From Escherichia coli (GTDB taxonomy: Bacteria; Pseudomonadota; Gammaproteobacteria; Enterobacterales; Enterobacteriaceae), in NCBI RefSeq assembly GCF_001677475.2, contig NZ_CP015229.1: 64,000 bases of DNA. One strand, given 5' to 3'. A program made the translations under genes and the position numbers. This document shows positions 3,935-52,586 of the stretch, piece by piece; position 1 is the stretch's first letter, and every line of letters starts with the position of its first letter. Under the pieces are notes generated by a model. That model was given only the letters and a program-made list of their open reading frames with translations. It was not told the origin of the DNA and searched no databases.

Positions 3935-3965
3935 GAAGCCGCCTGTTCAGGCGGCTTCGTTGTTT
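3935..3965 (+). terminator. Intrinsic terminator after exuT (GC hairpin gaagccgcc/ggcggcttc then T-rich tract)
   Basis: Perfect 9 bp stem with 6 nt loop followed by gttgttt. Confidence 0.7.
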
Positions 3966-3988
3966 ATGCGTTTGCCCGGCCTATAGGG

Positions 3989-7755: not shown

Positions 7756-7780
7756 GGCAACCCTGTAATCCATAACAACG

Positions 7781-7820
7781 ACTAAAATAGTTAAAATAAG
7801 GGAGGACAAGCCCCCCCTTT
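7781..7820 (-). terminator. Intra-operon hairpin (GGGGGG/CCUCCC stem, U-rich tail) between the pilin and usher genes; possible attenuator
   Basis: Minus-strand transcript ggggggg-cttgtc-ctccctt followed by auuuuaacuauuuu; position matches pilin/usher attenuators seen in other chaperone-usher operons. Confidence 0.4.
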
Positions 7821-7846
7821 ATTACGTATTAATTCTGTTATCCGGA

Positions 7847-8347
7847 TTAGATATCCTGGGACAGATAGATGCTTACCACACCACGGTAAATACCGGTTTC
7901 CAGTACACCTTTGGTGGTCTGAGCAAACATCAGGTTTTTAGCCAAAGAACCGTTGGTTAAAGCATCGGAAGCAAAAATTTTGGTTGCTTCGAAAGTGGTA
8001 GCGGCATCAGACTTGATTTCAGTACCACCCCAGGTCACAGTCAGCGGAACAGTTTTGCTGCCGTCCAGGTTATGAACCAGTTGCGCAGGGGAAACCAACT
8101 GCATTTTAATGTCTTTAGTAACATCGTTAGACCAAATTTTAGTCATCAACTGATAAGATTGCAGACCCTGACCCGGCAGATATTGCATTTCAACTGCTTT
8201 CGGCAGTGCGCTGTTATCGGTTTGCGTCATATCCAGGGCGGCATCAACGTTAGCTGTTACAGTAATATCTTTTTGTACTGCTAACGCGGAGCCTGCTACA
8301 GAGAATAACGCTGCTACCAGAAGAGATTTTGCAAATGCCTTTTTCAT
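7847..8347 (-). CDS. Major fimbrial subunit, class 5 (CooA/CfaB-like pilin), 166 aa with signal peptide
   Basis: ITVTANVDAALDMTQTDNSALP and C-terminal YRGVVSIYLSQ resemble CooA ISVTASVDPTVDLLQSDGSALP ... YQGLVSIIL as recalled. Confidence 0.85.
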   Translation of the reverse strand: MKKAFAKSLLVAALFSVAGSALAVQKDITVTANVDAALDMTQTDNSALPKAVEMQYLPGQGLQSYQLMTKIWSNDVTKDIKMQLVSPAQLVHNLDGSKTVPLTVTWGGTEIKSDAATTFEATKIFASDALTNGSLAKNLMFAQTTKGVLETGIYRGVVSIYLSQDI

Positions 8348-8376
8348 TACTATTCCTTCGTTTATGACAATGATAA

Positions 8377-9093
8377 TTAATGGATCGCCAGCTCAAACTC
8401 GCCATTATCCTTAGTGATCCAGTTATTATATTTGACAACGATCTTGTCGTAGCCAGATATGCTTTCAAGATTTATTTCCTGACCAGGGAAGATATTTTTA
8501 TTTACGGTCTGCATCTTACAATTATCTTTGCTATTATTTTTGCAATAAGCGATCGTTAAAAGTTTTAAACGTTGATTCCCTGCATTAAATAATTTTTTGG
8601 CAGGATTTACTTCTAACTTAGCAATAGGTTGTTGGGGTGGAACACTAACAACAATCCCCCAAATCAAGTTAACTGTTAACTGCATAGAGAGATCTTTTTT
8701 ATCTGTGGCAACGTCATCAATACTGGGAACTGCTTCAAATTTAACGCGGTAATTTTTCTCTTTTTGCTCTGGTTCCATTGCGACAAAGCGCACGGTTTTG
8801 CTGCTACCGGCTGGTAAGGCGAATTTGGGTGGCATAACGACCAGATGATTTGCATCACCGGATTTAATCTCAACTTCATTTTCCTGAGGCGTCGATGGAT
8901 TATCTATACGGAATACTGTCGCCTTGATATACTGAACTTCATTACTTTTAGATATTACACGAACGTTGCCTTCACCCTGACTATTAATAGAAACAGCCAT
9001 AGGATAAACAGTCATATTTGACTGTGCAAAAAAAGGAGCGAACACGAATAAAAGCGGCGTAAGCCGTGATAAGAGTTTAATTTTCGCCACCAT
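8377..9093 (-). CDS. Periplasmic fimbrial chaperone, class 5 (CooB/CfaA-like), 238 aa
   Basis: IYPMAVS, KSNEVQYIKATV and YRVKFEAV resemble CooB IYPISKD, KSKEIQYIKIYT and YRVYFEAV as recalled; first gene of the operon. Confidence 0.85.
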   Translation of the reverse strand: MVAKIKLLSRLTPLLFVFAPFFAQSNMTVYPMAVSINSQGEGNVRVISKSNEVQYIKATVFRIDNPSTPQENEVEIKSGDANHLVVMPPKFALPAGSSKTVRFVAMEPEQKEKNYRVKFEAVPSIDDVATDKKDLSMQLTVNLIWGIVVSVPPQQPIAKLEVNPAKKLFNAGNQRLKLLTIAYCKNNSKDNCKMQTVNKNIFPGQEINLESISGYDKIVVKYNNWITKDNGEFELAIH

Positions 9094-9342
9094 ATAGAAT
9101 TGATCTTACAAAATTGTTTCAAAAAAGTTAGTGCATTAGAAATGTAGATTTATTGTAAGTCAATATAAAAAATCATTTTTAGTTAATATTAATTTAAAAA
9201 GCGAAAAATTAAGTTACTGAAACATAGTAATTTTCACAATAGCGACGCTTAATTTTTAGGAATTTATAAATATTCACAATGTTAATTAAATACATTATTT
9301 CAATCACCATATTTATATATGAACAATGGCATACCCATAAAT
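9094..9342 (-). promoter_or_regulatory. Strongly AT-rich leader/promoter region of the fimbrial operon
   Basis: About 250 bp of very low GC with A/T tracts immediately upstream of the chaperone start; exact promoter elements not assigned. Confidence 0.4.
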
Positions 9343-9362
9343 AAAGTGGTATGATAACTTTG
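9343..9362. promoter_or_regulatory. Candidate ExuR operator upstream of exuR (aaagtggtatgataactttg)
   Basis: Matches the 2364..2383 motif at about 16 of 20 positions; sits 27 bp upstream of the exuR start. Confidence 0.45.
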
Positions 9363-9388
9363 TCCGCATTCCATTCCGGGAGACGCAT

Positions 9389-10165
9389 ATGGAAATCTCT
9401 GAACCACGCCGTTTGTACCAACAACTTGCTGCTGACCTGAAAGAGCGCATTGAGCAGGGCGTCTATCTGGTGGGTGATAAACTGCCCGCCGAACGTTTTA
9501 TTGCCGATGAAAAAAACGTCAGCCGAACGGTAGTTCGTGAAGCCATCATCATGCTGGAAGTTGAAGGCTATGTGGAGGTGCGTAAAGGTTCAGGTATTCA
9601 CGTGGTTTCCAACCAGCCGCGCCATCAGCAGGCGGCTGACGATAATATGGAATTTGCCAATTACGGCCCGTTTGAACTGTTACAGGCTCGCCAGCTTATC
9701 GAGAGCAATATTGCCGAGTTTGCCGCAACCCAGGTGACCAAGCAGGACATCATGAAATTGATGGCCATCCAGGAGCAGGCTCGCGGCGAACAATGCTTCC
9801 GCGATTCCGAGTGGGATTTGCAGTTCCACATTCAGGTAGCCCTGGCGACGCAGAACTCCGCCCTGGCGGCTATCGTTGAAAAAATGTGGACCCAACGTAG
9901 CCATAACCCGTACTGGAAAAAACTACACGAACACATTGATGCCCGTACTGTCGATAACTGGTGCGATGACCACGATCAGATCCTCAAGGCGTTAATTCGC
10001 AAAGATCCTCATGCTGCTAAGCTGGCAATGTGGCAGCATCTGGAAAACACCAAAATCATGTTATTTAACGAAACCAGCGACGATTTCGAGTTCAATGCCG
10101 ACCGCTATCTGTTCGCAGAAAACCCGGTAGTGCATCTCGATACGGCCACCAGCGGCAGCAAATGA
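9389..10165 (+). CDS. exuR: Hexuronate regulon repressor ExuR (GntR/FadR family), 258 aa
   Basis: [37 protein letters not shown]...; length matches ExuR. Confidence 0.93.
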
Positions 10166-15030: not shown

Positions 15031-15396
15031 ATGGACTGGTATCTGAAAGTACTAAAAAATTATGTCGGTTTCCGGGGTCGTGCGCGGCGCAAAGAGTACT
15101 GGATGTTTATTCTGGTCAACATCATCTTCACGTTCGTGCTGGGGCTACTGGATAAAATGTTAGGCTGGCAACGCGCAGGTGGCGAAGGCATCCTGACGAC
15201 AATCTACGGTATTCTGGTGTTTTTACCGTGGTGGGCGGTTCAGTTCCGCCGCCTGCACGACACCGACCGCTCGGCGTGGTGGGCACTGCTATTCTTAATC
15301 CCGTTTATCGGCTGGCTTATTATCATCGTCTTTAACTGCCAGGCGGGTACGCCAGGCGAAAACCGCTTTGGACCAGATCCAAAACTGGAACCTTAA
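15031..15396 (+). CDS. yhaH: DUF805 inner membrane protein YhaH, 121 aa
   Basis: MDWYLKVLKNYVGFRGRARRKEYWMF... Confidence 0.88.
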   Translation: MDWYLKVLKNYVGFRGRARRKEYWMFILVNIIFTFVLGLLDKMLGWQRAGGEGILTTIYGILVFLPWWAVQFRRLHDTDRSAWWALLFLIPFIGWLIIIVFNCQAGTPGENRFGPDPKLEP

Positions 15397-15409
15397 AACA
15401 AATCTGCTC

Positions 15410-15437
15410 GCCGGATGTCTGACTCATCCGGCTTTTA
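15410..15437 (+). terminator. Intrinsic terminator after yhaH
   Basis: gccggatg...catccggc hairpin followed by tttt. Confidence 0.75.
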
Positions 15438-15637
15438 TCATTATGTTGATGAATGAATAATTTACTAATGTTTATTTAAAATATTTCAATGTCGTTATAT
15501 AAATTACCTATAAAAAATAACCATGTATTTATCTTAAATATCAAAACCTTTATAACATCCGAAAAAGAAAGATACGAATAGCATTTACACAATACCCGGA
15601 ATAGACTTTCGTCACTTTTAATTAAAGGGATGTTTTT

Positions 15638-15994
15638 ATGCAGTGGTATTTATCCGTATTAAAAAATTATGTTGGTTTCTCTGGTCGCGCACGTCGTAAA
15701 GAGTACTGGATGTTTACTCTGATTAACGCCATCGTCGGCGCTATTATCAATGTCATTCAATTGATTTTAGGTTTAGAGTTTCCATTCCTTTCTCTCATTT
15801 ACCTGGCAGCAACAATCATTCCGATCATTGCTCTGTGCGTTCGTCGTCTGCACGATACTGACCGTTCAGGTGCGTGGGCGCTTCTCTATCTGGTACCGAT
15901 CATTGGCTGGTTAGTTCTGTTTGTATTTGCCTGTTTAGAAGGCAATTCTGGCAGCAATCGTTACGGAAACGATCCGAAGTTTGGTTCAAATTAA
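15638..15994 (+). CDS. yhaI: DUF805 inner membrane protein YhaI, 118 aa (paralog of yhaH)
   Basis: MQWYLSVLKNYVGFSGRARRKEYWMF...; same fold signature as YhaH but in an AT-rich context. Confidence 0.88.
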   Translation: MQWYLSVLKNYVGFSGRARRKEYWMFTLINAIVGAIINVIQLILGLEFPFLSLIYLAATIIPIIALCVRRLHDTDRSGAWALLYLVPIIGWLVLFVFACLEGNSGSNRYGNDPKFGSN

Positions 15995-26411: not shown

Positions 26412-27746
<1,335 letters not shown>

Positions 27747-27764: not shown

Positions 27765-28754
27765 TTAAGCGTCAACGAAACCGGTGATTTGAGAGACGCG
27801 AGAAAGATCGATATTGCCGCCGGAAATAATACTGACGGTTTTTCTGTTTTGAATATATTGGTCTAATTTACCGCTTAATAATGCAGCACATGCCAGAGCG
27901 CCTGCGCCTTCGGTGACGACTTTATTGCGCTGAATTAAGGCAATCATACTGTTTCTGATTTCGTCTTCGCTGACCAGCACGATGTCATCGACTAATTCAC
28001 GAACGATTTCGTAAGTTAAATTACCCGGGCGGGCGACATCACAACCATCCGCCAGGGTGCCGGTAGTTCGGTGCGTAGTTATTTCTCCGGAGTGGAAAGA
28101 AGCCGCCATGCCGTGAACGTTTTCTGACTGTACGCCAATAACACGAATGGTCGGGTTAATAGATTTAATTGCCACCGCAATACCAGCAATTAAACCGCCA
28201 CCACCAATTGGCACAATCACGTTATCGACATCATAGAGATCTTCCATAATTTCCAGACCAATCGTTCCCTGGCCAGCAATCACTTTCGGATCATCGTAAG
28301 GTGGGATAAAAATACGGCCTTCCATTTCGACAATTTCGCTCACTTTAGCGATAGTGTCGTTGAAGTTATCACCATGCAGAACGACTTCAGCGGAGTAGTC
28401 GCACGTTGCCGCTACTTTGGATTTTGGCGCACCTTTTGGCATCACCACTTTACCGTCGATACCCAGCATCGCGCAGGAGAGGGAAACCCCTTGCGCATGG
28501 TTGCCCGCAGAACAGGCCACCACGCCTTTGCGTTTTTCCGCATCGGTCAGTGAACTTAATTTATTAAATGCGCCACGAATTTTAAATGAACCCGTACGCT
28601 GCATATTTTCAAACTTCAGGAATATTTCACCTTTGCAACGTTCACTAAAATAGTTGGAGCGAGGCATGCCTGTTTTATAAATTCGCCCAGCCAGTCGTTG
28701 TTTCGCTTCAATAATGTCATCAATAGCAACCGGCAGATCGTATGTAATATGCAT
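27765..28754 (-). CDS. tdcB: Catabolic threonine dehydratase TdcB, 329 aa
   Basis: PLP-enzyme motif FKIRGAFNK; [29 protein letters not shown]... Confidence 0.93.
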
Positions 28755-28852: not shown

Positions 28853-29791
28853 CTAACCAACTTCTATTAATTGCCTTCGTCTACACCCATTATAAGATGA
28901 ATACTCTTTGGCTAATTCCACCAAAACCGATGCTGCTTTTTTAATACGATAATTTTTCGACCATACCGCGGCATATTGTGCCACAGGTAATGTTTCTTCA
29001 ACCGGAATAGTAATAAATTGATTAGAACCAAAAGGTGACGTCATATCACAAGGAATTACAGTTAAGAAATCAGCATTGAGAACAAGATTATAAATTGTCA
29101 CGACTGAGTCGGTTTTAACGATGTTTTCAATACTGATGCCATTTCTTTGTAACGTAGTAAGCAGTTCGCTGTAGTACCCCATATTAGTTTGTGGCAACAC
29201 CCACTGTTCGTTCTTCAACGACTCCAGCGTGGTGGTGCCGGTGCATGTTCGGGACTTACTGGCTACCAGTACAAACTCGGACTCAAACAGCGGCTCAACA
29301 TGTAAATCCTGAAGCTTCATTTCTGCACTTAACGTACCAATCGCAAAATCCAGTCGACCGTCGCGGATTGCCGGTAAGAACGAAGACAGTTGCGCTTCAT
29401 ACATAGAAACCTGCGCTTTCGGGAACACCTCTTTGAACTTGTTGATCATCCCTGACATAAAAGTAAAACCAATCAATGAAGGAAAACCAAATGAAACTTC
29501 CACCACCGCCTCAGAAGACATACCGCTTATCTCATTAACCATATTTTTCATTTCACGGGTAATGGATTCGGAACGGGAGAGTAACAATTGACCGGCATGT
29601 GTTAATGTTACACCGGTATTTTTCCGCACCACTAATTCCACACCAAAATAATCTTCAATATCGTTAATGATTTTACTGACGGCTGGTTGAGTTAACCCTA
29701 ATTCTTTTGCAGCCGAGCCGATAGAGCCACTTCTAATGACTTCCTGAAAGACTACCAGGTGCTGCGTTTTCGGAAGAAGAATAGTGCTCAT
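28853..29791 (-). CDS. tdcA: LysR-family activator TdcA, 312 aa
   Basis: MSTILLPKTQHLVVFQEVIRSGSIGSAAKELGLTQPAVSKIINDIEDYFG. Confidence 0.92.
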   Translation of the reverse strand: MSTILLPKTQHLVVFQEVIRSGSIGSAAKELGLTQPAVSKIINDIEDYFGVELVVRKNTGVTLTHAGQLLLSRSESITREMKNMVNEISGMSSEAVVEVSFGFPSLIGFTFMSGMINKFKEVFPKAQVSMYEAQLSSFLPAIRDGRLDFAIGTLSAEMKLQDLHVEPLFESEFVLVASKSRTCTGTTTLESLKNEQWVLPQTNMGYYSELLTTLQRNGISIENIVKTDSVVTIYNLVLNADFLTVIPCDMTSPFGSNQFITIPVEETLPVAQYAAVWSKNYRIKKAASVLVELAKEYSSYNGCRRRQLIEVG

Positions 29792-30105
29792 AACGACCTA
29801 CGTTAATTACCTCATTGACGGCATGAAGTGTATCAAAATGAAATGAACAGGATATGTGCGACCACTCACAAATTAACTTTCAATACTTTCCAGGGTATCG
29901 TTATTACAATTAAATACCTTTAAATATCAACAAGTTAAAGTATAAAAATCAGCATAAAGCCTGATTTTTGTCAAAAAAAATGACGGGGATAACCATATTT
30001 TATGGCGATAACATCATTCGTTATGTGGTTAATACAAAAAAGGGGCTGAGACCATATTTCAAGCAATTACCGGATAATTACCAGGCAAAATTTGAGTTAA
30101 ATTTA

Positions 30106-30324
30106 ATGAGCAAGTTCTCAAATTTTATTATAAATAAACCATTTTCAGCGATAAATAATGCGGCACGTCACATTTTTTCACGCTATTTGTTGGAGAACAA
30201 ACATTTATTTTATCAATATTTTAAAATTTCGAATACAGATATTGATCATCTCGAACAATTGATTAACGTCAACTTTTTCTCTTCTGACAGGACGTCATTT
30301 TGTGAATGCAATCGTTTTCCATAA
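30106..30324 (+). CDS. tdcR: Small regulator TdcR, 72 aa
   Basis: ORF 29968..30324; start at MSKFSNFIINKPFSAINNAARHIFSRYLLENKHL gives the 72 aa form; divergent from tdcA; start not certain. Confidence 0.65.
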   Translation: MSKFSNFIINKPFSAINNAARHIFSRYLLENKHLFYQYFKISNTDIDHLEQLINVNFFSSDRTSFCECNRFP

Positions 30325-30549
30325 ATTCTTCTCCCCTCACAGGCGACGAATAGCATTTTGTGTTGAGGATCACAAAACGAATAATTGCTGGTCGCTGCGA
30401 TAAGGTCAGACAAAGACAACAAGGGGAATTTTCACAGAGCTTTTGATCGGCGTAGGCCACAGAATGTTGCTTCGTTTACTGTAACGCCGGGTAAATGAGC
30501 GTTTTTTGATAGTGCGAAAGAACCCTGCGAGGAAAATAAGCATCTATTA

Positions 30550-31119
30550 TTGTTTGTCATGATGACAAGGCAGGCATCAATGAAAGGCTTCCCAATTGCA
30601 CATATTTTTCACCCTTCAATCCCGCCAATGCACGCAGTGGTTAACAATCACAATAGAAATATTGATTATTGGACGGTAAAAAGAAAGTTTGCAGAAATTG
30701 TCTCCACCAATGACGTTAATAAAATATACAGTATAAGTAATGAACTGCGGAGAGTATTATCTGCAATTACTGCATTGAATTTCTATCAAGGCGATGTTCC
30801 TTCTGTCATGATCCGAATCCAACCGGAAAATATGAGTCCATTCATCGTAAATATTTCTACAGGAGAACATGACGATTATATCATACAAACATTAGATGTA
30901 GGCACTTTTGCACCTTTTGGCGAACAATGTACTTGCTCAGCCGTCAATCAAAAAGAGCTGGAATGTATTAAGGAGACGATTTCTAAGTATTGTGCAAAAT
31001 TCACCCGAAAAGAAGCCATCTTAACCCCCTCTGCGTACTTTAATAAAACCTGCATTACTTCAGGTTGTTGGCAAATTCTCTATTTTTCACCCGATCATTT
31101 TAATAATGATTTTTATTGA
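30550..31119 (+). CDS. yhaB: Uncharacterised protein YhaB
   Basis: 189 aa ORF in an AT-rich block; start ambiguous (MFVMMTRQ vs MKGF); recognised by position and sequence. Confidence 0.7.
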   Translation: MFVMMTRQASMKGFPIAHIFHPSIPPMHAVVNNHNRNIDYWTVKRKFAEIVSTNDVNKIYSISNELRRVLSAITALNFYQGDVPSVMIRIQPENMSPFIVNISTGEHDDYIIQTLDVGTFAPFGEQCTCSAVNQKELECIKETISKYCAKFTRKEAILTPSAYFNKTCITSGCWQILYFSPDHFNNDFY

Positions 31120-31140
31120 TTATTTATAAAGGATAAAATA

Positions 31141-32328
31141 ATGTTCCCTGTTTCATCAATTGGTAATGATATTAGTAGTGATTTAGTCCGTCGAAAAATA
31201 AATGACCTTCCTGGAAGCCCCATAGAAAATAACCTCGAAGCACTAGCACCAGGTATAGAAAAACTAAAACAGACCTCTATTGAAATGGTCACTTTACTTA
31301 ACGCATTACAACCAGGTGGGAAATGTGTTATCACTGGTGATTTTCAAAAAGAATTAGCGTACTTACAGAATGTAATTCTTTATAATGACTCGTCTCTTCG
31401 TATGGATTTTTTAGGTTATAACGCCCGAATTATCCAACGATCGGACAATACCTGTGCACTTACAATTAATGAACCGTTAAAAAACCAGGAAATATCTACA
31501 GGCAATATCAATGTTAATTGTCCATTAAAATATATTTACAATGAAATCAGGAGGTTAAGCGTAATCTTTAGTTGTGGAACTGGAGATATAGTTGATCTAT
31601 CCTCTCTGGACTTACGTAATGTCGATTTAGATTATTATGATTTCACAGATAAACATATGGCTAATACTATTTTAAATCCTTTTAAATTGGATTCAACAAA
31701 TTTTACTAATGCCAACATGTTTCAGGTTAATTTTGTTAGTTCAACACAAAACGCCACAATCTCCTGGGATTATTTACTAAAAATAACACCTGTTTTAACA
31801 AGCATTAGCGATATGTATTCTGAAGAAAAAATTAAGTTTGTCGAAAGTTGTTTAAATGAGCTTGGAGATATTACCGAAGAACAATTAAAAATTATGAGAT
31901 TTGCAATTATAAAATCTATACCAAGAGCAACTCTTACAGATAAATTAGAAAATGAATTAACAAAAGAAATATATAAAAGCTCATCGAAAATCAACAATTT
32001 CTTGAACAGGATTAAATTACCAGAGATGATAGATTTCTCATCAGAAAAAATACATAATTATATCGACATAATCATTGAAGATTATGAGAACATCAAAGAA
32101 AATGCTTATCTTGTCATTCCCAAAATTAATTATACTATAGATTTAAACATAGAAGACTCTAGCTCAGAAGAGTTACTTTCAGATAATGCCATCGAGAAAG
32201 ACGAAAATTCTCCGGACAATGGTTTTGAGGTCGGGGAATATAACACATATGAAGCATATAACTCAGAGAAGCAATATTTTACCAGAGAGGACTATACGTA
32301 TGATTACGACCTTTTAAATGCAATATAG
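31141..32328 (+). CDS. yhaC: Uncharacterised protein YhaC, 395 aa
   Basis: AT-rich ORF MFPVSSIGNDISSDLVRRKINDLPG...; contains a short pentapeptide-repeat-like stretch. Confidence 0.8.
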   Translation: MFPVSSIGNDISSDLVRRKINDLPGSPIENNLEALAPGIEKLKQTSIEMVTLLNALQPGGKCVITGDFQKELAYLQNVILYNDSSLRMDFLGYNARIIQRSDNTCALTINEPLKNQEISTGNINVNCPLKYIYNEIRRLSVIFSCGTGDIVDLSSLDLRNVDLDYYDFTDKHMANTILNPFKLDSTNFTNANMFQVNFVSSTQNATISWDYLLKITPVLTSISDMYSEEKIKFVESCLNELGDITEEQLKIMRFAIIKSIPRATLTDKLENELTKEIYKSSSKINNFLNRIKLPEMIDFSSEKIHNYIDIIIEDYENIKENAYLVIPKINYTIDLNIEDSSSEELLSDNAIEKDENSPDNGFEVGEYNTYEAYNSEKQYFTREDYTYDYDLLNAI

Positions 32329-32547
32329 ACTTAATAACTTCTTACAAAGTCTATTATTAATACCGTAGATATTCATGCATCTTACCCTGTGCACCAAAAG
32401 CAAAAACTTATCGACGCGGTTTTTTACGTACATCAGGTGAAACTGACCGATAAGCCGCTTTCTTTTGGGTATAGTGTCGTGGACAGTCATTCATCTTTCT
32501 GCCCCTCCAAAAGCAAAAACCCGCCGAAGCGGGTTTTTACGTAAATC

Positions 32548-32924
<377 letters not shown>

Positions 32925-35904: not shown

Positions 35905-37239
35905 TTATTTCTGCAATTCCATACGTTTAATGTCGCCAACTACGAAGAGGTAGCAGACCATCGCCATCAGCGCTGAACATCCCACGAAAACCAGTGCTGC
36001 ATTGAAGGAGTGCAATTCACTTACCAGGTAGCCAATCACCAGTGGAGTGACAATGGAGGCAACATTGCCAAAGACGTTAAAGACGCCGCCGCAGAGGCCA
36101 ACAATCTCTTTCGGCGCGGTGTCAGAAATCACCGGCCAGCCCAGAGCACCAAATCCTTTGCCAAAAAAAGCCAGCGCCATCAGCATGACCACCAGCGTGG
36201 TGTTGTTGGTGTAGTTACATAAGATGATGGTGGAAGCCAGCAACATTCCCAGCACAATCGGTAGCTTACGTGCCAGGGTCAGGGATAAACCGCGTTTGAT
36301 CAGATAATCCGAGAAGACACCTCCCAGCACGCCGCCCGCAAAACCACACAGTGCCGGAATCGAGGCGACCAGACCCACTTTCAGAATCGACATGCCTTTT
36401 TCCTGCACCAGATAAATTGGGAACCAGGTGAGGAAGAACCAGGTAATGGTGTTGATAAAATATTGCCCGAAAAATACGCCCAGCATCATGCGGTTAGAGA
36501 GCAGTTGCTTGATGTAATGCAGTTTGGGACCGCTTGCTGCCGCGCTGCCCGGCTTTTTGTGGTCCATATCGACCACCGCGCCATTTTCAGAGATAAACTT
36601 CAGCTCTTCCGCAGACATACGTGGGTGATCTGTCGGGTTATGAATCAACTTGATCCACAGCGCCGTCAGCACAAAACCAATCACCCCCATAACGGTGAAG
36701 ACGTGCTCCCAGCCCCAGGCGAAAGTCAGCCAGCCAAGCAGCGGCGAAAAGAGCGCCAGCGAGAAATATTGCGCCGAGTTAAAGATGGCGGAGGCAGTAC
36801 CACGTTCTTTTGTCGGAAACCAGGCGGCGACAATACGGGCGTTCGCCGGGAATGATGGCGCTTCCGAGAACCCCAGCATAAAGCGCATAAAGAACATGGA
36901 GATCCCTGCCCAGGCCAGCGGGAACATATCAACAAAGCCTTGCAGGAAGGTGAACAGCGACCAGAAAAAGAGGCTGTAGGTGTAAACTTTTTTCGAGCCA
37001 AACTTATCAAGCAGCCAGCCGCCGGGAATTTGCATCAGCAGGTAGGCCCAGCCAAAAGCGGAGAAGATGTAACCCATCGAAACCGCACTTAACTGCAACT
37101 CTTTTGCCACTTCGGTACCAGCAATAGACAGCGTTGCACGATCGGCGTAGTTAACGGCGGTAACAATAAAAATAATCAGTAATATTAAATAGCGGGTATG
37201 CACGCCTTTCTTTTTTACGTCAACGGTGTCCAGAATCAT
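35905..37239 (-). CDS. garP: Galactarate/glucarate MFS transporter GarP, 444 aa
   Basis: MILDTVDVKKKGVHTRYLILLIIFIVTAVNYADRATLSIAG... Confidence 0.92.
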   Translation of the reverse strand: MILDTVDVKKKGVHTRYLILLIIFIVTAVNYADRATLSIAGTEVAKELQLSAVSMGYIFSAFGWAYLLMQIPGGWLLDKFGSKKVYTYSLFFWSLFTFLQGFVDMFPLAWAGISMFFMRFMLGFSEAPSFPANARIVAAWFPTKERGTASAIFNSAQYFSLALFSPLLGWLTFAWGWEHVFTVMGVIGFVLTALWIKLIHNPTDHPRMSAEELKFISENGAVVDMDHKKPGSAAASGPKLHYIKQLLSNRMMLGVFFGQYFINTITWFFLTWFPIYLVQEKGMSILKVGLVASIPALCGFAGGVLGGVFSDYLIKRGLSLTLARKLPIVLGMLLASTIILCNYTNNTTLVVMLMALAFFGKGFGALGWPVISDTAPKEIVGLCGGVFNVFGNVASIVTPLVIGYLVSELHSFNAALVFVGCSALMAMVCYLFVVGDIKRMELQK

Positions 37240-37613
37240 TTTATTTACCTCGGGTACTTATGCTGATTTTTATTATTATGGGGAAGGTGTTATTTATGAG
37301 TTTTATTTATGCCGTTACGACAATGAACTCGGGAATTAGTATAAGCAGCGGGAGAATAATAATCATTGTGCAAATGCTAATTTAATCAGTACTATTTAAA
37401 TATTATTTTGAGCATATGCACATAAGGTTGCGCGCTAAAGCACAGATTTGCGCTTTACCTTACCGGGCGGCACTGCAATCCCTGAAATGATTGACATTGA
37501 TCACATTTCTGCGTTTAAACTCCTGACATTCTTATTTCACCCAATGAAGTCATTTATTTTTAAATGAGACCAGGTCCTCATTTTAATAACCCCTGGCTGG
37601 AGAATATTGCACA

Positions 37614-39185
37614 ATGGCCAACATCGAAATCAGACAAGAAACGCCAACTGCGTTTTATATAAAAGTTCACGACACAGATAATGTGGCAATTATTGTTAAT
37701 GATAATGGCCTGAAAGCAGGAACGCGTTTTCCGGATGGGCTGGAATTAATTGAACATATTCCCCAGGGGCATAAAGTCGCATTGCTGGACATTCCGGCTA
37801 ATGGTGAAATTATTCGTTATGGCGAAGTGATTGGTTACGCCGTGCGCGCAATCCCACGCGGAAGCTGGATCGACGAATCAATGGTTGTACTACCGGAAGC
37901 GCCGCCGTTACACACGCTGCCACTGGCAACCAAAGTCCCGGAACCCTTACCGCCGCTGGAAGGATACACCTTTGAGGGCTATCGCAATGCCGATGGCAGC
38001 GTGGGCACTAAAAACCTGCTCGGCATCACCACCAGCGTCCACTGTGTAGCAGGCGTGGTGGACTATGTAGTAAAAATCATTGAACGCGATCTGCTACCGA
38101 AATACCCGAACATCGATGGCGTGGTGGGGCTGAATCATTTGTACGGCTGTGGCGTGGCGATTAACGCACCGGCGGCAGTTGTGCCTATTCGTACCATCCA
38201 CAATATTTCGCTGAACCCTAACTTTGGCGGCGAAGTAATGGTGATTGGTCTGGGTTGTGAAAAGTTGCAGCCTGAGCGCCTGCTGACTGGAACGGATGAT
38301 GTGCAAGCTATTCCAGTAGAAAGCGCCAGCATTGTCAGTTTGCAGGATGAAAAGCATGTCGGCTTTCAGTCCATGGTTGAGGATATTTTGCAGGTCGCCG
38401 AACGCCATTTGCACAAACTGAATCAACGGCAGCGAGAAACCTGTCCGGCTTCAGAACTGGTTGTCGGCATGCAGTGCGGTGGCAGCGATGCGTTTTCTGG
38501 CGTAACGGCAAACCCGGCGGTTGGGTATGCGTCTGATCTACTGGTGCGCTGCGGCGCAACGGTGATGTTTTCAGAAGTCACGGAAGTGCGTGACGCGATC
38601 CATCTGCTGACACCACGCGCAGTGAACGAAGAGGTCGGCAAACGGCTGCTGGAGGAGATGGAGTGGTACGATAACTATCTCAATATGGGAAAAACCGACC
38701 GCAGCGCCAACCCTTCGCCGGGCAACAAGAAAGGCGGTCTGGCAAATGTGGTGGAGAAAGCGCTCGGCTCCATTGCTAAATCGGGTAAAAGCGCAATTGT
38801 TGAAGTGCTGTCGCCTGGTCAACGCCCGACTAAACGCGGATTAATTTACGCCGCGACGCCAGCCAGCGATTTTGTCTGTGGCACGCAACAGGTGGCTTCG
38901 GGTATCACCGTGCAAGTGTTTACGACCGGTCGCGGTACGCCGTACGGCCTGATGGCGGTACCCGTCATTAAAATGGCAACCCGCACCGAGCTGGCGAACC
39001 GCTGGTTTGATTTAATGGATATTAATGCGGGCACCATCGCTACCGGCGAAGAAACTATTGAAGAGGTGGGCTGGAAGTTGTTCCACTTTATTCTCGACGT
39101 CGCCAGCGGGAAGAAGAAAACCTTCTCAGATCAATGGGGACTGCATAACCAGCTGGCGGTGTTTAACCCAGCACCGGTGACCTGA
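37614..39185 (+). CDS. garD: Galactarate dehydratase GarD, 523 aa
   Basis: [39 protein letters not shown]...; divergent from garPLRK. Confidence 0.92.
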
Positions 39186-43032: not shown

Positions 43033-43812
43033 ATGGAAATCAGTCTGTTGCAGGCATTCGCGTTGGGCATTATCGCCTTTATCGCTGGCCTGGATATGTT
43101 TAACGGCCTAACCCATATGCACCGCCCGGTGGTCCTCGGCCCGTTGGTCGGGCTGGTACTTGGCGATCTGCATACCGGTATTTTAACCGGCGGTACGCTG
43201 GAACTGGTGTGGATGGGGCTGGCCCCGCTGGCAGGCGCACAGCCGCCTAACGTGATTATCGGTACTATCGTCGGCACGGCGTTTGCCATTACTACCGGCG
43301 TGAAACCCGATGTCGCGGTCGGTGTCGCCGTACCTTTCGCTGTCGCAGTACAGATGGGGATTACCTTCCTGTTCTCGGTGATGTCTGGCGTAATGTCCCG
43401 CTGCGACCGGATGGCGGAGAACGCCGATACACGCGGCATTGAACGCGTGAACTATCTGGCACTGCTGGCACTCGGCACTTTCTATTTTCTCTGCGCTTTC
43501 CTGCCTATCTACTTCGGCGCAGAACATGCCAAAACCATCATTGATGTCCTACCGCAACGATTAATCGACGGCCTCGGCGTCGCGGGCGGCATCATGCCAG
43601 CAATCGGTTTTGCCGTACTGCTGAAAATCATGATGAAAAACGTCTACATCCCCTACTTCATCCTGGGCTTTGTTGCCGCAGCCTGGCTCAAGTTACCGGT
43701 GCTGGCTATTGCTGCCGCCGCGCTGGCGATGGCGCTGATCGACCTGCTGCGTAAATCTCCTGAACCGACTCAACCTGCGGCACAGAAAGAGGAATTTGAA
43801 GATGGCATCTAA
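43033..43812 (+). CDS. agaW: N-acetylgalactosamine PTS IIC component AgaW, full length 259 aa
   Basis: MEISLLQAFALGIIAFIAGLDMFNG...; intact here, truncated in K-12 as recalled. Confidence 0.88.
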   Translation: MEISLLQAFALGIIAFIAGLDMFNGLTHMHRPVVLGPLVGLVLGDLHTGILTGGTLELVWMGLAPLAGAQPPNVIIGTIVGTAFAITTGVKPDVAVGVAVPFAVAVQMGITFLFSVMSGVMSRCDRMAENADTRGIERVNYLALLALGTFYFLCAFLPIYFGAEHAKTIIDVLPQRLIDGLGVAGGIMPAIGFAVLLKIMMKNVYIPYFILGFVAAAWLKLPVLAIAAAALAMALIDLLRKSPEPTQPAAQKEEFEDGI

Positions 43813-44680
43813 TCAAACCACCCTGCCGAACGTCAGTGAAAACGAAGAAACACTGCTGACAGGCGTCAATGAAAACGTGTATGAAGATCAGAGCATTGGC
43901 GCAGAGCTGACGAAAAAAGATATCAACCGCGTCGCCTGGCGTTCCATGCTGTTACAAGCGTCTTTTAACTACGAGCGTATGCAGGCTTCCGGCTGGTTGT
44001 ACGGTCTGCTGCCTGCTCTGAAAAAGATCCACACTAATAAACGCGACCTGGCGCGCGCCATGAAGGGGCATATGGGTTTCTTCAATACCCATCCGTTTCT
44101 GGTGACGTTTGTTATCGGCATTATCCTTGCGATGGAGCGTTCTAAGCAGGACGTTAACAGTATTCAGAGCACCAAAATTGCCGTCGGTGCGCCGCTCGGC
44201 GGGATTGGCGATGCGATGTTCTGGCTAACGCTACTGCCGATTTGTGGCGGGATAGGCGCAAGCCTCGCGCTACAAGGCTCTATTCTTGGCGCAGTCGTCT
44301 TTATTGTGCTGTTCAACGTGGTACACCTGGGGCTGCGTTTTGGTCTGGCGCATTATGCTTACCGCATGGGCGTGGCGGCGATTCCACTCATTAAAGCGAA
44401 TACCAAAAAAGTCGGCCATGCTGCGTCAATCGTTGGGATGACGGTAATCGGCGCGCTGGTGGCAACCTATGTTCGTTTAAGCACCACGCTGGAAATCACC
44501 GCTGGCGACGCAGTGGTTAAGTTACAGGCTGATGTTATCGACAAACTGATGCCTGCCTTCTTACCGCTGGTCTACACCCTGACCATGTTCTGGCTGGTAC
44601 GCCGCGGCTGGAGTCCGCTGCGCCTGATTGCAGTTACCGTGGTACTCGGCATCGTCGGTAAATTCTGTCATTTCCTTTAA
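43796..44680 (+). CDS. agaE: N-acetylgalactosamine PTS IID component AgaE, 294 aa
   Basis: Mannose-family IID profile; MKMASNQTTLPNVSENEETLLTGVNENVYEDQSIGAELTKKDINRVAWRS. Confidence 0.85.
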   Translation: MKMASNQTTLPNVSENEETLLTGVNENVYEDQSIGAELTKKDINRVAWRSMLLQASFNYERMQASGWLYGLLPALKKIHTNKRDLARAMKGHMGFFNTHPFLVTFVIGIILAMERSKQDVNSIQSTKIAVGAPLGGIGDAMFWLTLLPICGGIGASLALQGSILGAVVFIVLFNVVHLGLRFGLAHYAYRMGVAAIPLIKANTKKVGHAASIVGMTVIGALVATYVRLSTTLEITAGDAVVKLQADVIDKLMPAFLPLVYTLTMFWLVRRGWSPLRLIAVTVVLGIVGKFCHFL

Positions 44681-44697
44681 ATACAATGAGGTATTAG

Positions 44698-45132
44698 ATG
44701 TTAAGTATTATTTTGACAGGGCATGGCGGATTTGCCAGCGGCATGGAAAAAGCAATGAAGCAAATCCTCGGCGAGCAATCGCAGTTTATCGCCATCGATT
44801 TTCCGGAAACCTCAAGCACCGCGCTGCTTACATCGCAGCTTGAAGAGGCCATCGCCCAACTGGATTGTGAAGACGGCATTGTTTTTCTGACGGATTTGCT
44901 GGGCGGCACGCCGTTTCGCGTAGCTTCAACGCTGGCGATGCAAAAACCGGGCTGTGAAGTGATCACCGGCACCAATTTGCAACTGCTACTGGAGATGGTG
45001 CTGGAGCGCGAAGGGTTAAGCGGTGAAGAGTTCCGTGTGCAGGCGCTTGAGTGTGGACACCGTGGGCTGACCAGTCTGGTAGATGAGTTAGGCCGCTGCC
45101 ATGAAGAATGTCCGGTCGAGGAAGGAATATGA
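44698..45132 (+). CDS. agaF: N-acetylgalactosamine PTS IIA component AgaF, 144 aa
   Basis: MLSIILTGHGGFASGMEKAMKQILGEQ (mannose-family IIA). Confidence 0.85.
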   Translation: MLSIILTGHGGFASGMEKAMKQILGEQSQFIAIDFPETSSTALLTSQLEEAIAQLDCEDGIVFLTDLLGGTPFRVASTLAMQKPGCEVITGTNLQLLLEMVLEREGLSGEEFRVQALECGHRGLTSLVDELGRCHEECPVEEGI

Positions 45133-46262
45133 CACCCGTTTTGCGCGCCAGAAGGCTGCTGACTGAAGAGGGATGGCTCGATGACCATCAGTTGCGTATT
45201 GCTGACGGTGTAATCGCAGCAATCGAACCGATTCCAGTGGGCGTGACTGAACGCGATGCGGAACTGCTCTGCCCCGCTTACATCGACACCCATGTACACG
45301 GTGGTGCGGGCGTTGATGTAATGGATGACGCGCCGGATGTGCTCGACAAGCTGGCAATGCACAAAGCACGCGAAGGTGTCGGCAGTTGGTTACCGACCAC
45401 CGTAACCGCGCCGCTTAATACCATTCATGCGGCGCTGGAACGTATTGCTCAACGTTGCCAACGCGGCGGACCTGGTGCGCAAGTGCTGGGGAGTTATCTC
45501 GAAGGACCGTACTTCACGCCGCAGAATAAAGGTGCGCATCCGCCGGAGCTGTTCCGCGAGCTGGAAATTGCCGAGCTGGATCAATTGATTGCCGTTTCTC
45601 AGCACACCTTGCGCGTGGTGGCGCTGGCACCGGAAAAAGAAGGGGCATTGCAGGCCATCCGCCATCTTAAACAGCAAAACGTACGGGTGATGCTGGGGCA
45701 TAGCGCGGCGACCTGGCAACAAACCCGTGCCGCGTTTGACGCTGGTGCCGACGGCCTGGTGCATTGCTATAACGGGATGACAGGTTTACATCACCGCGAA
45801 CCGGGAATGGTTGGCGCGGGATTAACGGACAAGCGCGCCTGGCTGGAACTGATAGCCGATGGTCATCATGTGCATCCGGCGGCGATGTCGCTGTGTTGTT
45901 GCTGTGCGAAAGAGAGAATCGTGCTCATCACCGACGCGATGCAGGCAGCAGGGATGCCGGATGGTCGCTATACGTTATGTGGTGAAGAAGTGCAGATGCA
46001 CGGTGGCGTTGTCCGTACCGCGTCCGGTGGGCTGGCGGGCAGTACGCTGTCTGTCGATGCGGCAGTGCGCAACATGGTCGAGTTGACGGGCGTAACGCCT
46101 GCGGAAGCCATCCATATGGCGTCGCTGCATCCGGCGCGTATGCTGGGTGTTGATGATGTTCTGGGATCGCTTAAACCGGGCAAACGCGCCAGCGTCGTTG
46201 CGCTGGATAGCGGGCTGCATGTGCAACAAATCTGGATTCAGGGTCAATTAGCTTCGTTTTGA
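45129..46262 (+). CDS. agaA: N-acetylgalactosamine-6-phosphate deacetylase AgaA, 377 aa, full length
   Basis: ORF 45108..46262; start at MTPVLRARRLLTEEGWLDDHQLRIADG; NagA-like metal-binding HVHGG motif. Confidence 0.88.
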   Translation: MTPVLRARRLLTEEGWLDDHQLRIADGVIAAIEPIPVGVTERDAELLCPAYIDTHVHGGAGVDVMDDAPDVLDKLAMHKAREGVGSWLPTTVTAPLNTIHAALERIAQRCQRGGPGAQVLGSYLEGPYFTPQNKGAHPPELFRELEIAELDQLIAVSQHTLRVVALAPEKEGALQAIRHLKQQNVRVMLGHSAATWQQTRAAFDAGADGLVHCYNGMTGLHHREPGMVGAGLTDKRAWLELIADGHHVHPAAMSLCCCCAKERIVLITDAMQAAGMPDGRYTLCGEEVQMHGGVVRTASGGLAGSTLSVDAAVRNMVELTGVTPAEAIHMASLHPARMLGVDDVLGSLKPGKRASVVALDSGLHVQQIWIQGQLASF

Positions 46263-47766: not shown

Positions 47767-48639
<873 letters not shown>

Positions 48640-48805
48640 TCATTAGTTTTTTATGATTTATCCCAATGTACTTCCCGATTAATATCGGGGAGTGCCTTAA
48701 TGGAAAAGGAGATGACTAAACCTTAATAAATACATCAGTACAATATCGCAACAATAATATATTTAAAAAAATTATATTATTCAACTTTATGGTGAGGATT
48801 ACACA

Positions 48806-49282
48806 ATGAGCAGTCCAAATATTCTCTTAACCCGTATTGATAACCGTCTGGTTCATGGCCAGGTTGGCGTGACCTGGACATCCACCATCGGTGCAAATCT
48901 GCTGGTAGTCGTGGATGATGTTGTCGCTAACGATGATATTCAACAGAAATTAATGGGTATTACCGCGGAAACCTACGGCTTTGGCATTCGTTTCTTTACT
49001 ATCGAAAAAACCATTAACGTCATCGGCAAAGCTGCACCACACCAGAAGATCTTCCTGATTTGCCGTACGCCACAAACGGTACGTAAATTGGTAGAAGGTG
49101 GCATTGACCTGAAAGATGTCAACGTCGGCAATATGCATTTCTCGGAAGGGAAAAAGCAAATCAGCAGTAAAGTTTATGTCGATGACCAGGATCTCACGGA
49201 CTTACGTTTTATTAAACAACGTGGTGTGAATGTTTTCATTCAGGACGTCCCTGGCGATCAAAAAGAACAAATCCCTGACTAA
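48806..49282 (+). CDS. agaB: Galactosamine PTS IIB component AgaB, 158 aa
   Basis: MSSPNILLTRIDNRLVHGQVGVTW. Confidence 0.9.
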   Translation: MSSPNILLTRIDNRLVHGQVGVTWTSTIGANLLVVVDDVVANDDIQQKLMGITAETYGFGIRFFTIEKTINVIGKAAPHQKIFLICRTPQTVRKLVEGGIDLKDVNVGNMHFSEGKKQISSKVYVDDQDLTDLRFIKQRGVNVFIQDVPGDQKEQIPD

Positions 49283-50905: not shown

Positions 50906-51673
50906 ATGGAACGAGGCACTGCTTCTGGCGGTGCCTCTTTACTTAAGGAATTTCATCCTGTGCAAACCCTTCAGCAAGTTGAAAACTATACGGCGTTAAG
51001 TGAACGTGCCAGCGAATATTTATTGGCCGTGATCCGTAGCAAACCGGATGCCGTGATTTGCCTGGCGACCGGAGCCACGCCATTACTGACGTATCATTAT
51101 CTGGTAGAAAAAATCCACCAGCAGCAGGTTGATGTCAGCCAACTAACCTTCGTCAAGCTCGACGAATGGGTGGATCTGCCATTAACTATGCCTGGCACCT
51201 GCGAAACTTTCCTGCAACAGCATATCGTGCAGCCGCTGGGGCTACGTGAAGACCAGCTCATCAGCTTTCGCTCCGAAGAGATAAATGAGACAGAGTGCGA
51301 ACGGGTAACGAACCTGATTGCGCGCAAAGGCGGTCTGGATTTATGCGTTCTCGGATTGGGGAAAAACGGTCATCTTGGGCTGAACGAACCGGGAGAAAAC
51401 CTGCAACCGACCTGCCATATCAGTCAACTTGATGCCAGAACACAGCAACATGAGATGTTAAAAACCGCGGGCCGTCCCGTGACTCGTGGGATCACCTTAG
51501 GCCTGAAGGATATTCTCAATGCCCGCGAAGTTTTGTTACTGGTGACTGGCGAAGGAAAGCAGGATGCGACAGAACGTTTTCTCACGGCTAAAGTCTCCAC
51601 CGCTATCCCGGCTTCGTTTTTATGGCTGCATAACTATTTCACATGCATGATTGATGAGATGTGTCGTCGTTAA
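50906..51673 (+). CDS. agaI: Putative galactosamine-6-phosphate deaminase/isomerase AgaI (NagB-like), 255 aa
   Basis: ATG directly follows the agaD stop; MERGTASGGASLLKEFHPVQTLQQVENYTALSERASEYLLAV. Confidence 0.88.
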   Translation: MERGTASGGASLLKEFHPVQTLQQVENYTALSERASEYLLAVIRSKPDAVICLATGATPLLTYHYLVEKIHQQQVDVSQLTFVKLDEWVDLPLTMPGTCETFLQQHIVQPLGLREDQLISFRSEEINETECERVTNLIARKGGLDLCVLGLGKNGHLGLNEPGENLQPTCHISQLDARTQQHEMLKTAGRPVTRGITLGLKDILNAREVLLLVTGEGKQDATERFLTAKVSTAIPASFLWLHNYFTCMIDEMCRR

Positions 51674-51675
51674 CT

Positions 51676-51719
51676 CGCCTGCTACAGGCGTTGCAACGCT
51701 ATTCCTGCTGCGACGCCTG
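51676..51719. terminator. Inverted repeat between convergent agaI and rsmI (possible bidirectional terminator)
   Basis: acaggcgt ... acgcctgt 8 bp arms with a long loop; weak as a classic terminator. Confidence 0.3.
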
Positions 51720-51722
51720 TAA

Positions 51723-52586
51723 TCACTCTCCCTGCTGCTCCAGTGCATACTTATACAGCGCATTTTTCTTCACGCCGTGAATTTCTGCGGCCAGCGCCGC
51801 CGCTTTTTTCAGCGGCAGTTCTGCCTGTAGCAGCGCCAGCGTGCGCAGGGCATCGGCGGGTAAGTCTTCTTCCTGTGCTTTATGGCCTTCGACAATCAGT
51901 ACCATTTCGCCTTTGCGACGGTTTTCATCTTCTTTGACCCACGCCAGCAGCTCGCCAACGGGCGCGCCGTGAATGGTTTCCCAGGTTTTGGTCAGCTCAC
52001 GCGCCAGAACGACGTAGCGGGATTCGCCTAATACCGCAACGATATCTTCCAGGCTATCTAACAGACGGTGGGTAGATTCATAAAAAATCAGCGTGCGCGG
52101 CTCCGCTTCAATGGCTTTTAGCGCATCACGGCGGCCTTTTGATTTGGCAGGTAAAAAGCCTTCATAACAAAAACGATCGGATGGTAAACCCGCGGCGCTT
52201 AACGCAGTGATAGCAGCACACGGCCCGGGTAGCGGCACCACGAGAATCCCCGCTTCACGGCAGGTACGCACCAGATGGTAGCCAGGATCGTTAATTAGCG
52301 GCGTTCCGGCATCGGAAACCAGCGCAATGTTTTGCCCCTCTTGCAGCTTCGCCAGCAGCGTTTCGGCTTTTTGTTGTTCGTTATGGTCGTGCAGCGCAAA
52401 CAACCGAGCATTAATCCCAAAATGTTGCAGCAATAAACCGGTGTGACGCGTATCCTCGGCGGCAATCAGATCAACGGCCTGTAATACCTCCAACGCACGC
52501 TGGGTGATATCCGCCAGATTGCCGATTGGCGTCGGTACAATGTAAAGCTGGCCCTGAGAATTATCCGCCGATTGGTGTTGTTTCAT
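51723..52586 (-). CDS. rsmI: 16S rRNA C1402 2'-O-methyltransferase RsmI, 287 aa
   Basis: [48 protein letters not shown]. Confidence 0.92.

Follow-up and report, generated by a model that had tools for sequence, protein, structure and literature searches.

Between tdcA and rnpB, the Escherichia coli chromosome carries a short, AT-rich block with three genes, tdcR, yhaB and yhaC, which raises the question of where this DNA came from and what kind of protein its largest gene, yhaC, encodes. An earlier note on this DNA, which placed the block at 29800-32340, had read it as a single horizontally acquired islet and had pointed to a run in YhaC that resembles pentapeptide repeats. The present analysis covers a window of 64,000 nucleotides (nt) of E. 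coli DNA on contig NZ_CP015229.1, and coordinates are positions in this window unless another locus is named. It points to a composite answer that we hold to be probable: the block would consist of two AT-rich layers, one of them an H-NS-coated, E. coli-specific yhaBC cassette, and this cassette would encode a dispensable orphan protein, YhaC, whose short pentapeptide beta-helix serves as a fast-evolving binding surface.

Two layers and their origin

Alignment of the window to the corresponding loci of Escherichia ruysiae (L010 and L012) reveals homology that runs through tdcA and tdcR, ends at 30388 and restarts at 32364. As a consequence of this break, the 1975-nt segment at 30389-32363 (+ strand), which comprises the yhaB upstream region, yhaB (30580-31119, +; 179 amino acids (aa)) and yhaC (31141-32328, +; 395 aa), is specific to E. 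coli. In its place, E. ruysiae carries about 90 unrelated nt, with no yhaBC remnant in the alignment, and both E. ruysiae and Escherichia sp. E4930 are ordered tdcA-tdcR-rnpB-garK. Further upstream, tdcR (30106-30324, +; 72 aa) and the AT-rich spacer next to it are common to E. ruysiae at about 88% identity, and the tdcR region is AT-rich there as well, at 29.5% guanine plus cytosine (G+C). By this comparison, the block is made up of two layers, an older tdcR module and the E. coli-specific yhaBC genes, and the boundaries of the latter (30389-32363) are a small but concrete addition of this analysis. The first layer, spacer and tdcR together, would regulate the anaerobic threonine/serine (tdc) operon as a module common to the genus. 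The second would be a 2.0-kb, two-gene cassette with its own promoter that entered the E. coli lineage at a point between tdcR and the terminator repeats of rnpB, apparently without recognisable mobility machinery. The idea of an old horizontally acquired islet thereby divides into two parts: a foreign or young origin is supported for yhaBC, but the block is not a single islet, as tdcR and the spacer are older and shared with E. ruysiae.

Several searches bear on the foreign or young origin of yhaBC. E. ruysiae and Escherichia sp. E4930 lack it and show no remnants of it, and its relatives are confined to E. coli and Shigella, as a check of its phylogenetic distribution confirms. Specifically, word-index searches with YhaB and YhaC match E. 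coli and Shigella only, and a scan of 100,044 species genomes finds just two contigs outside, both in metagenome-assembled genomes labelled as other genera. These two contigs (Collinsella, L007; Bacteroides, L008) carry a yhaC 88-92% identical to that of E. coli and are almost certainly mis-binned E. coli DNA. The species scan uses two short peptide patterns and is blind to distant relatives, a gap that is covered by an exhaustive profile search with YhaC, in which the single full-length cluster is YhaC itself. A tblastn search against phages finds no relatives of yhaBC, and the matches in the plasmid collection are limited to three records of 4.8-4.9 Mb (H52-H54), which are evidently chromosomes, and one record of 354 kb.

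The position of the insert beside a stable RNA gene, which the earlier note took as a sign of acquisition, calls for a separate assessment. At 32394-32597 (no strand assigned) lie about two copies of a 113-nt direct repeat (spacing 113 nt, 83% identity), each of which copies the rnpB terminator together with the last ~50 nt of rnpB. These repeats were reportedly described by Reed and Altman in the early 1980s. It could thus be argued that the islet integrated site-specifically into the rnpB 3' end, as islands do at transfer RNA (tRNA) and transfer-messenger RNA (tmRNA) genes, and that the repeats are its footprints. Like such islands, the insert adjoins a stable RNA gene, in this case abutting repeats that duplicate the 3' end and terminator of rnpB, is anomalous in composition and is sporadically present within the genus. 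Unlike them, it has neither an integrase nor a distal duplicate of the RNA-gene 3' end, and the rnpB repeats exist regardless of the insert. Open reading frames, Pfam, NCBIfam, PADLOC and PHROGs reveal no integrase or recombinase or other mobility gene in the 2 kb, only yhaB and yhaC, which match no phage or defence family either. The far, tdcR-side junction lacks an rnpB-derived or other repeat, since local alignment of 30325-30580 against 32329-32640 reaches a best score of 18, compared with a shuffle mean of 18.5. The 113-nt repeats are also found in E. ruysiae, which is without yhaBC, and no related cassettes turn up on phages or plasmids. Because there is no integrase, no junction repeat and a set of repeats that occurs without the insert, the rnpB position is not evidence of tRNA-style integration, and we regard this scenario as quite unlikely. 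The repeat copy number itself varies: the gap between yhaC and rnpB measures 219 nt in the window, 387 nt in NCTC9112 and 613 nt in a K-12-type genome, so that K-12 carries more 113-nt repeats than the window strain. The hairpin of the outer copy is degenerate in the window, its -5.3 kcal/mol being no improvement on shuffled sequences.

The pentapeptide segment of YhaC

YhaC is an acidic protein (isoelectric point (pI) 4.5) with no signal peptide and no segment hydrophobic enough to span a membrane. Its layout comprises an N-terminal alpha/beta domain (aa 38-144), the pentapeptide run (151-200), a helical part (~206-325) and an acidic, Tyr-rich tail (326-395). The peptide quoted in the earlier note, the PENTAPEPTIDE run, corresponds to residues 153-198. 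Set in register, residues 151-200, encoded at 31591-31740 (+), read VDLSS, LDLRN, VDLDY, YDFTD, KHMAN, TILNP, FKLDS, TNFTN, ANMFQ and VNFVS. These are ten consecutive pentads on the consensus A(D/N)(L/F/M)XX with the centre residues L, L, L, F, M, L, L, F, M and F, seven of the ten having D or N just before the centre, and the run surpasses the at least about eight consecutive tandem A(D/N)(L/F)XX pentads by which the family is recognised. In a period-5 test, none of 20,000 shuffles of YhaC produces a run of ten pentads, the shuffle maximum being eight.

A second line of evidence comes from the comparison of the window allele with a rare second haplotype, which occupies the same site in 19 of 5426 complete genomes and is 65% identical in YhaC and 74% identical in YhaB. 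With the centre of each pentad numbered i, positions i-2, i-1 and i are 80% identical between the haplotypes, with a ratio of nonsynonymous to synonymous substitution rates (dN/dS) of 0.15, and all ten centre residues are the same. Positions i+1 and i+2 are 25% identical with a dN/dS of 1.21, and the difference between core and outer positions has a Fisher p of 1.6e-4. This substitution pattern is the one expected if the centres are packed inside a beta-helix and the other residues face outward.

Third, the YhaC profile was searched against 1.84 billion representative proteins. In addition to the full-length cluster, the search returns many short YhaC fragments and about 50 long proteins (E 2.6e-11 to 9e-4), nearly all of which align only to YhaC ~140-210, in 2-12 stretches; all nine of the long proteins that were scanned are strong PF00805 proteins, with 101-311 bits. 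The same exhaustive search finds no relatives of the non-repeat parts of YhaC. All 19 yhaC alleles match both pentapeptide models of Pfam, at sub-threshold E of 0.03-0.5, no other family being consistent across alleles, and a profile search of the PDB finds the pentapeptide proteins 4yfo and 2j8k at E ~0.03. Three further weak Pfam matches, to DUF5876 (3 of 19 alleles), LinB-like_C and Pox_VLTF3, were dismissed as inconsistent across alleles, and the literature search found no paper mentioning DUF5876.

Judged by its sequence, YhaC 151-200 is a true pentapeptide repeat, if a short one of about 2.5 coils, for which we infer a right-handed four-sided beta-helix fold. The period-5 test, the substitution pattern and the reverse profile search thereby bear out the pentapeptide-like run that had been noticed, a segment which by these measures is supported by evolutionary periodicity though domain databases miss it. 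EcoGene had reportedly given YhaC the label 'pentapeptide repeats-related' before. YhaC shares with pentapeptide-repeat proteins (PF00805/PF13599; a family of right-handed quadrilateral beta-helices, for example Rfr, MfpA and Qnr) the tandem units, ten in number, with the centre and i-2 conserved and the outer positions free, but differs in that its run is very short, embedded in a larger non-repeat protein and below the Pfam thresholds. Taken together, YhaC would be a soluble, acidic, multi-domain orphan protein with a pentapeptide segment of about 2.5 turns, in which the repeat is read from the sequence and the fold is predicted. As the core of the segment is conserved and its outward residues are free, the segment may bind protein rather than mimic DNA, through a surface that would evolve quickly along with its partner.

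DNA mimics of the MfpA/Qnr type consist almost wholly of at least 30 pentads and act as long dimeric rods, and YhaC could in principle belong with them, protecting a topoisomerase or another DNA-binding enzyme. The combination of a pentapeptide repeat with an overall acidic charge speaks for such a role, as does the annotation of yhaC with the Gene Ontology label 'response to DNA damage', which PMC9110714 quotes. YhaC, however, has only ten pentads, or ~2.5 coils, three quarters of it is unrelated non-repeat sequence, and the Qnr/MfpA family models of Pfam and NCBIfam are unmatched. A DNA-mimic function, which the earlier note had suggested, is unlikely for ~2.5 coils, and as an explanation of YhaC we consider it highly improbable.

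Outside the repeat, the Tyr- and Asp/Glu-rich tail of YhaC is variable except for its last eleven residues. These residues (aa 385-395, 32293-32325) read YTYDYDLLN(A/E)I, are nearly invariant in both haplotypes and look like a short linear interaction motif. YhaB is soluble (pI 6.6, no signal peptide or membrane segment), with residues 1-125 conserved; its C-terminal ~50 aa (30955-31119) are variable and frameshifted in several large database clusters (P0076, P0077, P0078), which points to decay or to a dispensable C-terminus. Neither protein has a match in PADLOC, or one better than E 0.05 in PHROGs.

Selection and fate of yhaBC

Are yhaB and yhaC functional genes at all? Against the divergent haplotype (dS ~0.5), dN/dS is 0.37 for yhaC and 0.27 for yhaB, and in the same comparison tdcA, tdcB and garK have values of 0.00-0.03 at dS ~0.1. 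The chance of an open frame at the local composition is 4e-15 for the 395 codons of yhaC and 4e-6 for yhaB. Given the low dN/dS and the improbable open frames, yhaB and yhaC are protein-coding and loosely constrained. A scan of wastewater E. coli places yhaC in the top 14 E. coli genes by strength of positive selection (PMC9110714).

Across the species, the cassette exists in three population states, namely the common haplotype, the rare haplotype and a deletion scar. The scar (30683-32284; 3980-4090 in locus L001) is shared by 1061-1063 of 5426 complete E. coli genomes, about a fifth; most of yhaB and yhaC is lost in it, and what is left comprises 34 yhaB codons, 63 nt from the middle of yhaC and the last 45 nt of yhaC. 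Strains with the scar bear names (O2:H6, avian O2) that suggest a lineage of extraintestinal E. coli, probably phylogroup B2. Some genomes carry insertions of the insertion sequences (IS) IS621 or IS1 in the locus. Because of the shared scar and the IS insertions, yhaBC is regarded as dispensable, and yhaB and yhaC would thus be true coding genes that the cell can do without and that are subject to weak purifying selection.

These observations also invite a more sceptical interpretation, in which yhaB and yhaC are decaying, functionless open reading frames, foreign leftovers that are kept because H-NS silencing makes them harmless. Deletion of yhaBC in ~20% of genomes, IS insertions in others, the frameshifted YhaB C-terminus in several clusters, a dN/dS ten times that of the neighbours and the lack of a known phenotype would all follow from decay. 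Such decay is difficult to reconcile with a dN/dS of 0.27-0.37, which is clearly below 1 over a large divergence, with the conservation of a 389-395-codon frame in both haplotypes despite a stop chance of 8% per codon, and with a constraint that tracks the pentapeptide periodicity, which is unexpected for a dead gene. We therefore rate decay as unlikely.

A different reading takes the diversification of YhaC as a sign of conflict. YhaC may be an orphan or relic effector secreted against eukaryotic hosts or competitors, such as a substrate of the degenerate E. coli type III secretion system 2 (ETT2), with YhaB as its helper and the pentapeptide surface and C-terminal Tyr-acidic motif as host-contact elements. 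The architecture has precedents: runs of 8 and 9 repeats occur in EspY3 and ~30 in PipB2 (PMC6313403), and one run is found in NleL (PMC3013003). As in the type III effectors EspY3, PipB/PipB2, NleL/EspX7 and SopA, the short run of YhaC lies within a larger unrelated protein, whose gene combines AT-richness with a restriction to certain lineages of Enterobacteriaceae (PMC6313403, PMC3013003). In addition, yhaC is H-NS-bound and fast-evolving, with its place in the top 14 of positive selection (PMC9110714) and a dN/dS of 1.21 at the outward repeat positions. The N-terminus of YhaC is rich in Ser, Asn and Ile with no Sec signal, the acidic tail ends in the invariant YTYDYDLLN.I, and the top Foldseek match of the N-terminal domain is EspG (E 0.064, probability score 0.90, 19-25% identity over 63-90 columns). 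Unlike these effectors, YhaC shows no sequence homology to them beyond its repeat, has neither a WEX5F nor a HECT-like domain and has no secretion genes nearby, yhaBC lying far from any secretion-system genes in the window. Effector families in Pfam and NCBIfam give no sequence match, K-12-type strains, which lack a working type III system, have an intact yhaC, and YhaB (179 aa, pI 6.6) is unlike the typical small acidic chaperone. An effector origin is, on this evidence, a somewhat doubtful proposition that we think rather unlikely. A broader version, in which YhaC, perhaps with YhaB, would be an arms-race interaction protein found only in E. coli, a secreted effector or a decoy against host, phage or competitor, is conceivable but likewise carries a low probability. 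It would fit a diversifying exposed helix face, two haplotypes as old as a species split that are kept or exchanged, and one large lineage that discarded the genes.

The favoured reading, a dispensable, E. coli-specific cassette whose product carries a short pentapeptide segment, has its own difficulties, and the following points weigh against it. The Pfam scores of YhaC lie below the cut-offs, with 13.8 versus 38 bits for PF13599 (Pentapeptide_4) and 10.6 versus 20.2 bits for PF00805 (Pentapeptide), and the repeated stretches in long repeat proteins inflate the E-values of the library search. AlphaFold2 yields a beta-helix neither for full-length YhaC (19-sequence alignment; mean predicted local distance difference test score (pLDDT) 43.6, with 70-83 for aa 38-144 and 25-45 for aa 145-245) nor for a 125-aa construct around the repeat (mean pLDDT 42.5), both models being unusable there at a pLDDT of 25-45; since the YhaC family is confined to E. 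coli, its alignments are shallow and the models poor. For the putative role as a binding surface, the sole line of evidence is the dN/dS contrast over 50 codons. With respect to origin, an empty site in two sister lineages cannot alone separate a gain in E. coli from a clean loss in those lineages, and the dS between the haplotypes, 0.55-0.63, is as deep as that of the flanks between E. coli and E. ruysiae (0.27-0.59), for which a single recent insertion is inadequate. The rare haplotype (loci L003-L006; yhaC at 6001-7170 in these loci) extends over the whole tdcR-yhaBC block, with 70-88% DNA identity to the window over ~29900-32550 and flanks with 97-100%. Its divergence could possibly reflect much faster mutation of the cassette, import from a relative that has not been sampled or the maintenance of both forms over a long time.

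Silencing, regulation and surroundings of the block

The composition of the block is extreme within the window, as had been claimed from its first reading. G+C at 29800-32340 is 33.3%, compared with 50.3% for the whole window; of all the stretches of 2541 nt that the window contains, no more than 0.15% are this poor in G+C. By gene, G+C amounts to 31.4% in yhaC, 36.7% in yhaB and 29.7% in tdcR, and to 46.4% in tdcB, 50.0% in tdcC, 54.3% in garK and 61.5% in rnpB. The comparison of codon usage with the flanking genes gives the same result, with a G+C at third codon positions of 0.27-0.32 in tdcR, yhaB and yhaC versus 0.41-0.62 in the neighbours, and with rare codons more frequent in the three genes. 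Three other AT-rich patches of 35-38% G+C (15257-15978, 37062-37768 and 48516-49037) map via the K-12 alignment to yhaI-yhaH, the divergent garD/garP spacer and the kbaY-agaB junction, with nothing unusual about them.

Near-matches (at most two mismatches) to the published high-affinity H-NS motif TCGATAAATT occur at 4.3/kb in the block versus 1.7/kb outside, a 2.6-fold higher density, and runs of six A/T at 105/kb versus 27/kb, about four times denser. Among the 'promoter islands' catalogued for K-12 are the tdcA/tdcR spacer and 706 nt within yhaC, both marked as H-NS-bound in several compiled studies using chromatin immunoprecipitation on microarrays (ChIP-chip) and predicted to be horizontally acquired (PMC3661553 Table 1). 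A study of RpoD by systematic evolution of ligands by exponential enrichment (SELEX) likewise marks the spacer 'HNS' in K-12 (PMC3946193). In composition and motif density, the window block is of the same kind as H-NS-bound promoter islands under xenogeneic silencing, with no difference in kind. Mouse gut passage repeatedly selects IS5 insertions in the spacer (PMC7518454), which fits a relief of tdc operon silencing; the literature search found no derepression data for yhaBC. The proposal that the block is likely silenced by H-NS is thus correct and not new, given the published binding in K-12 (PMC3661553, PMC3946193). H-NS coating and silencing are documented in the K-12 literature, and the same is presumed for the window strain, in which the region would be coated and largely silenced like other AT-rich acquired DNA.

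Regulatory sites are found in both layers. The divergent tdcA/tdcR spacer (29792-30105, no strand assigned; 32% G+C) contains, upstream of tdcA, the CRP-type site TGTGCGACCACTCACA at 29855-29870, read from the sequence and conserved in all lineages examined. An FNR-type site, TTGATTAACGTCAA, lies inside the tdcR 3' end (30259-30272, +), is the sole match in the window and is identical to the target that ChIP-chip with FNR attributed to yhaB in K-12 (PMC1802558). Loci L001, L002 and L014 have this site, and L003 and L010, the latter being E. ruysiae, lack it. Downstream of tdcR, the CRP-type site TGTGTTGAGGATCACA (30359-30374, +), again the sole match in the window, corresponds to an in-vitro CRP footprint assigned to yhaB in K-12 (PMC12871828). 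Lineages without yhaBC also retain this CRP-type site, which therefore counts as part of the older tdcR module, and the FNR-type site likewise falls within the older layer. Upstream of yhaB, a promoter-like TTGATA ... GAAAAT (30506-30537, +), read from the sequence, matches the 'constitutive promoter' assigned to yhaBC by SELEX with RpoD holoenzyme in K-12 (PMC3946193), and SELEX peaks of RpoS and RpoH fall in the same stretch (PMC5493296).

The description of all three products as lacking a well-defined function fails for TdcR. Schweizer and Datta (1989) and Hagewood et al. (1994) reportedly defined it genetically as a positive regulator of tdcABC. TdcR homologues occur in E. coli, Shigella, E. 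ruysiae and Escherichia sp. E4930. Against E. ruysiae (L010 5001-5219), the 25 differences in tdcR split 7/11/7 over codon positions 1/2/3, compared with 4/4/61 in tdcA, with a dN/dS of 0.85 and a dS of 0.14, below that of the flanks. The tdcR frame remains open, and its ends shift among lineages (72-92 aa). By these measures, tdcR evolves as if unconstrained at the protein level, and the tdcR 'activator' may in part be an AT-rich DNA or RNA element, for example one that titrates H-NS, rather than a protein.

On the other side of the block, rnpB (32548-32924, -; class A RNA of ribonuclease P; Rfam RF00010, 319.7 bits, full length) lies just downstream of and convergent with yhaC, bounding the AT-rich block from outside, and is followed by garK. 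The rnpB terminator hairpin (32516-32540, no strand assigned), with A and T runs on its flanks, folds on both strands, at -15.0 kcal/mol (z -2.9) on the + strand and -22.1 kcal/mol (z -4.0) on the - strand, and probably also ends the convergent yhaC transcript. A consensus terminator scan finds no terminator in 29700-32700. At the opposite end, the tdc operon runs on the - strand with tdcA (28853-29791), tdcB (27765-28754) and tdcC (26412-27743).

tdcR, yhaB and yhaC are standard E. coli annotations of a locus that was known before. Of 5426 complete E. coli genomes, 5425 have it under identical gene names, at 95-99% identity, and the three genes under the RefSeq match are annotated tdcR, yhaB and yhaC in thousands of genomes; the gar genes also match 5425 of 5426 complete genomes, at 95-99.3%. 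Specifically, TdcR matches the equivalog model NCBIfam NF008507 (170.4 bits versus a cut-off of 100, E 8e-51) in its 72-aa form, a longer open reading frame starting with TTG at 29968, and YhaC matches the equivalog NF007262 'YhaC family protein' (872.7 bits versus a cut-off of 765) over its full length, residues 1-395 of 395. YhaB is 94-96% identical to database proteins with a precomputed match to PF27690 (UCP004546) and itself has no match in the Pfam copy searched, which seems to predate this model. The window is 97.4-98.3% identical to a K-12-type chromosome over the shared parts, and 97.7% across 9343-32423. K-12 has the same genes in the same order and orientation (b3119-b3121, between tdcA and rnpB), as well as the same FNR-type site, CRP-type site and promoter-like sequence. 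Its YhaC is 93% identical to that of the window strain, which, unlike K-12, has a yhaC allele of its own, the closest database cluster being 95% identical.

Elsewhere in the window, a CS1-type fimbrial operon (3957-9343) with a usher-like TcfC protein, a chaperone and a major subunit is located between exuT and exuR. The operon is very AT-rich in stretches, down to 29% G+C at 8669-9631, absent from K-12 and present in 1907 of 5426 genomes, the best match being only ~90% identical. A stretch of the aga cluster (43408-45704) that is deleted in K-12, where it has left pseudogenes, is kept in the window strain, and the yraHIJK fimbrial operon appears to be missing near ~51630-51730, where the K-12 alignment jumps from agaI to rsmI.

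What, then, does this locus tell us about the biology of E. coli? Its AT-richness, its H-NS binding and its presumed foreign origin are already in print, and as a re-description of a K-12 locus the analysis changes little in this respect. The yhaBC genes nonetheless make a neat example of an operon that is young, narrow in its taxonomic range and weakly constrained, which may be of interest to those who study orphan genes and xenogeneic silencing.

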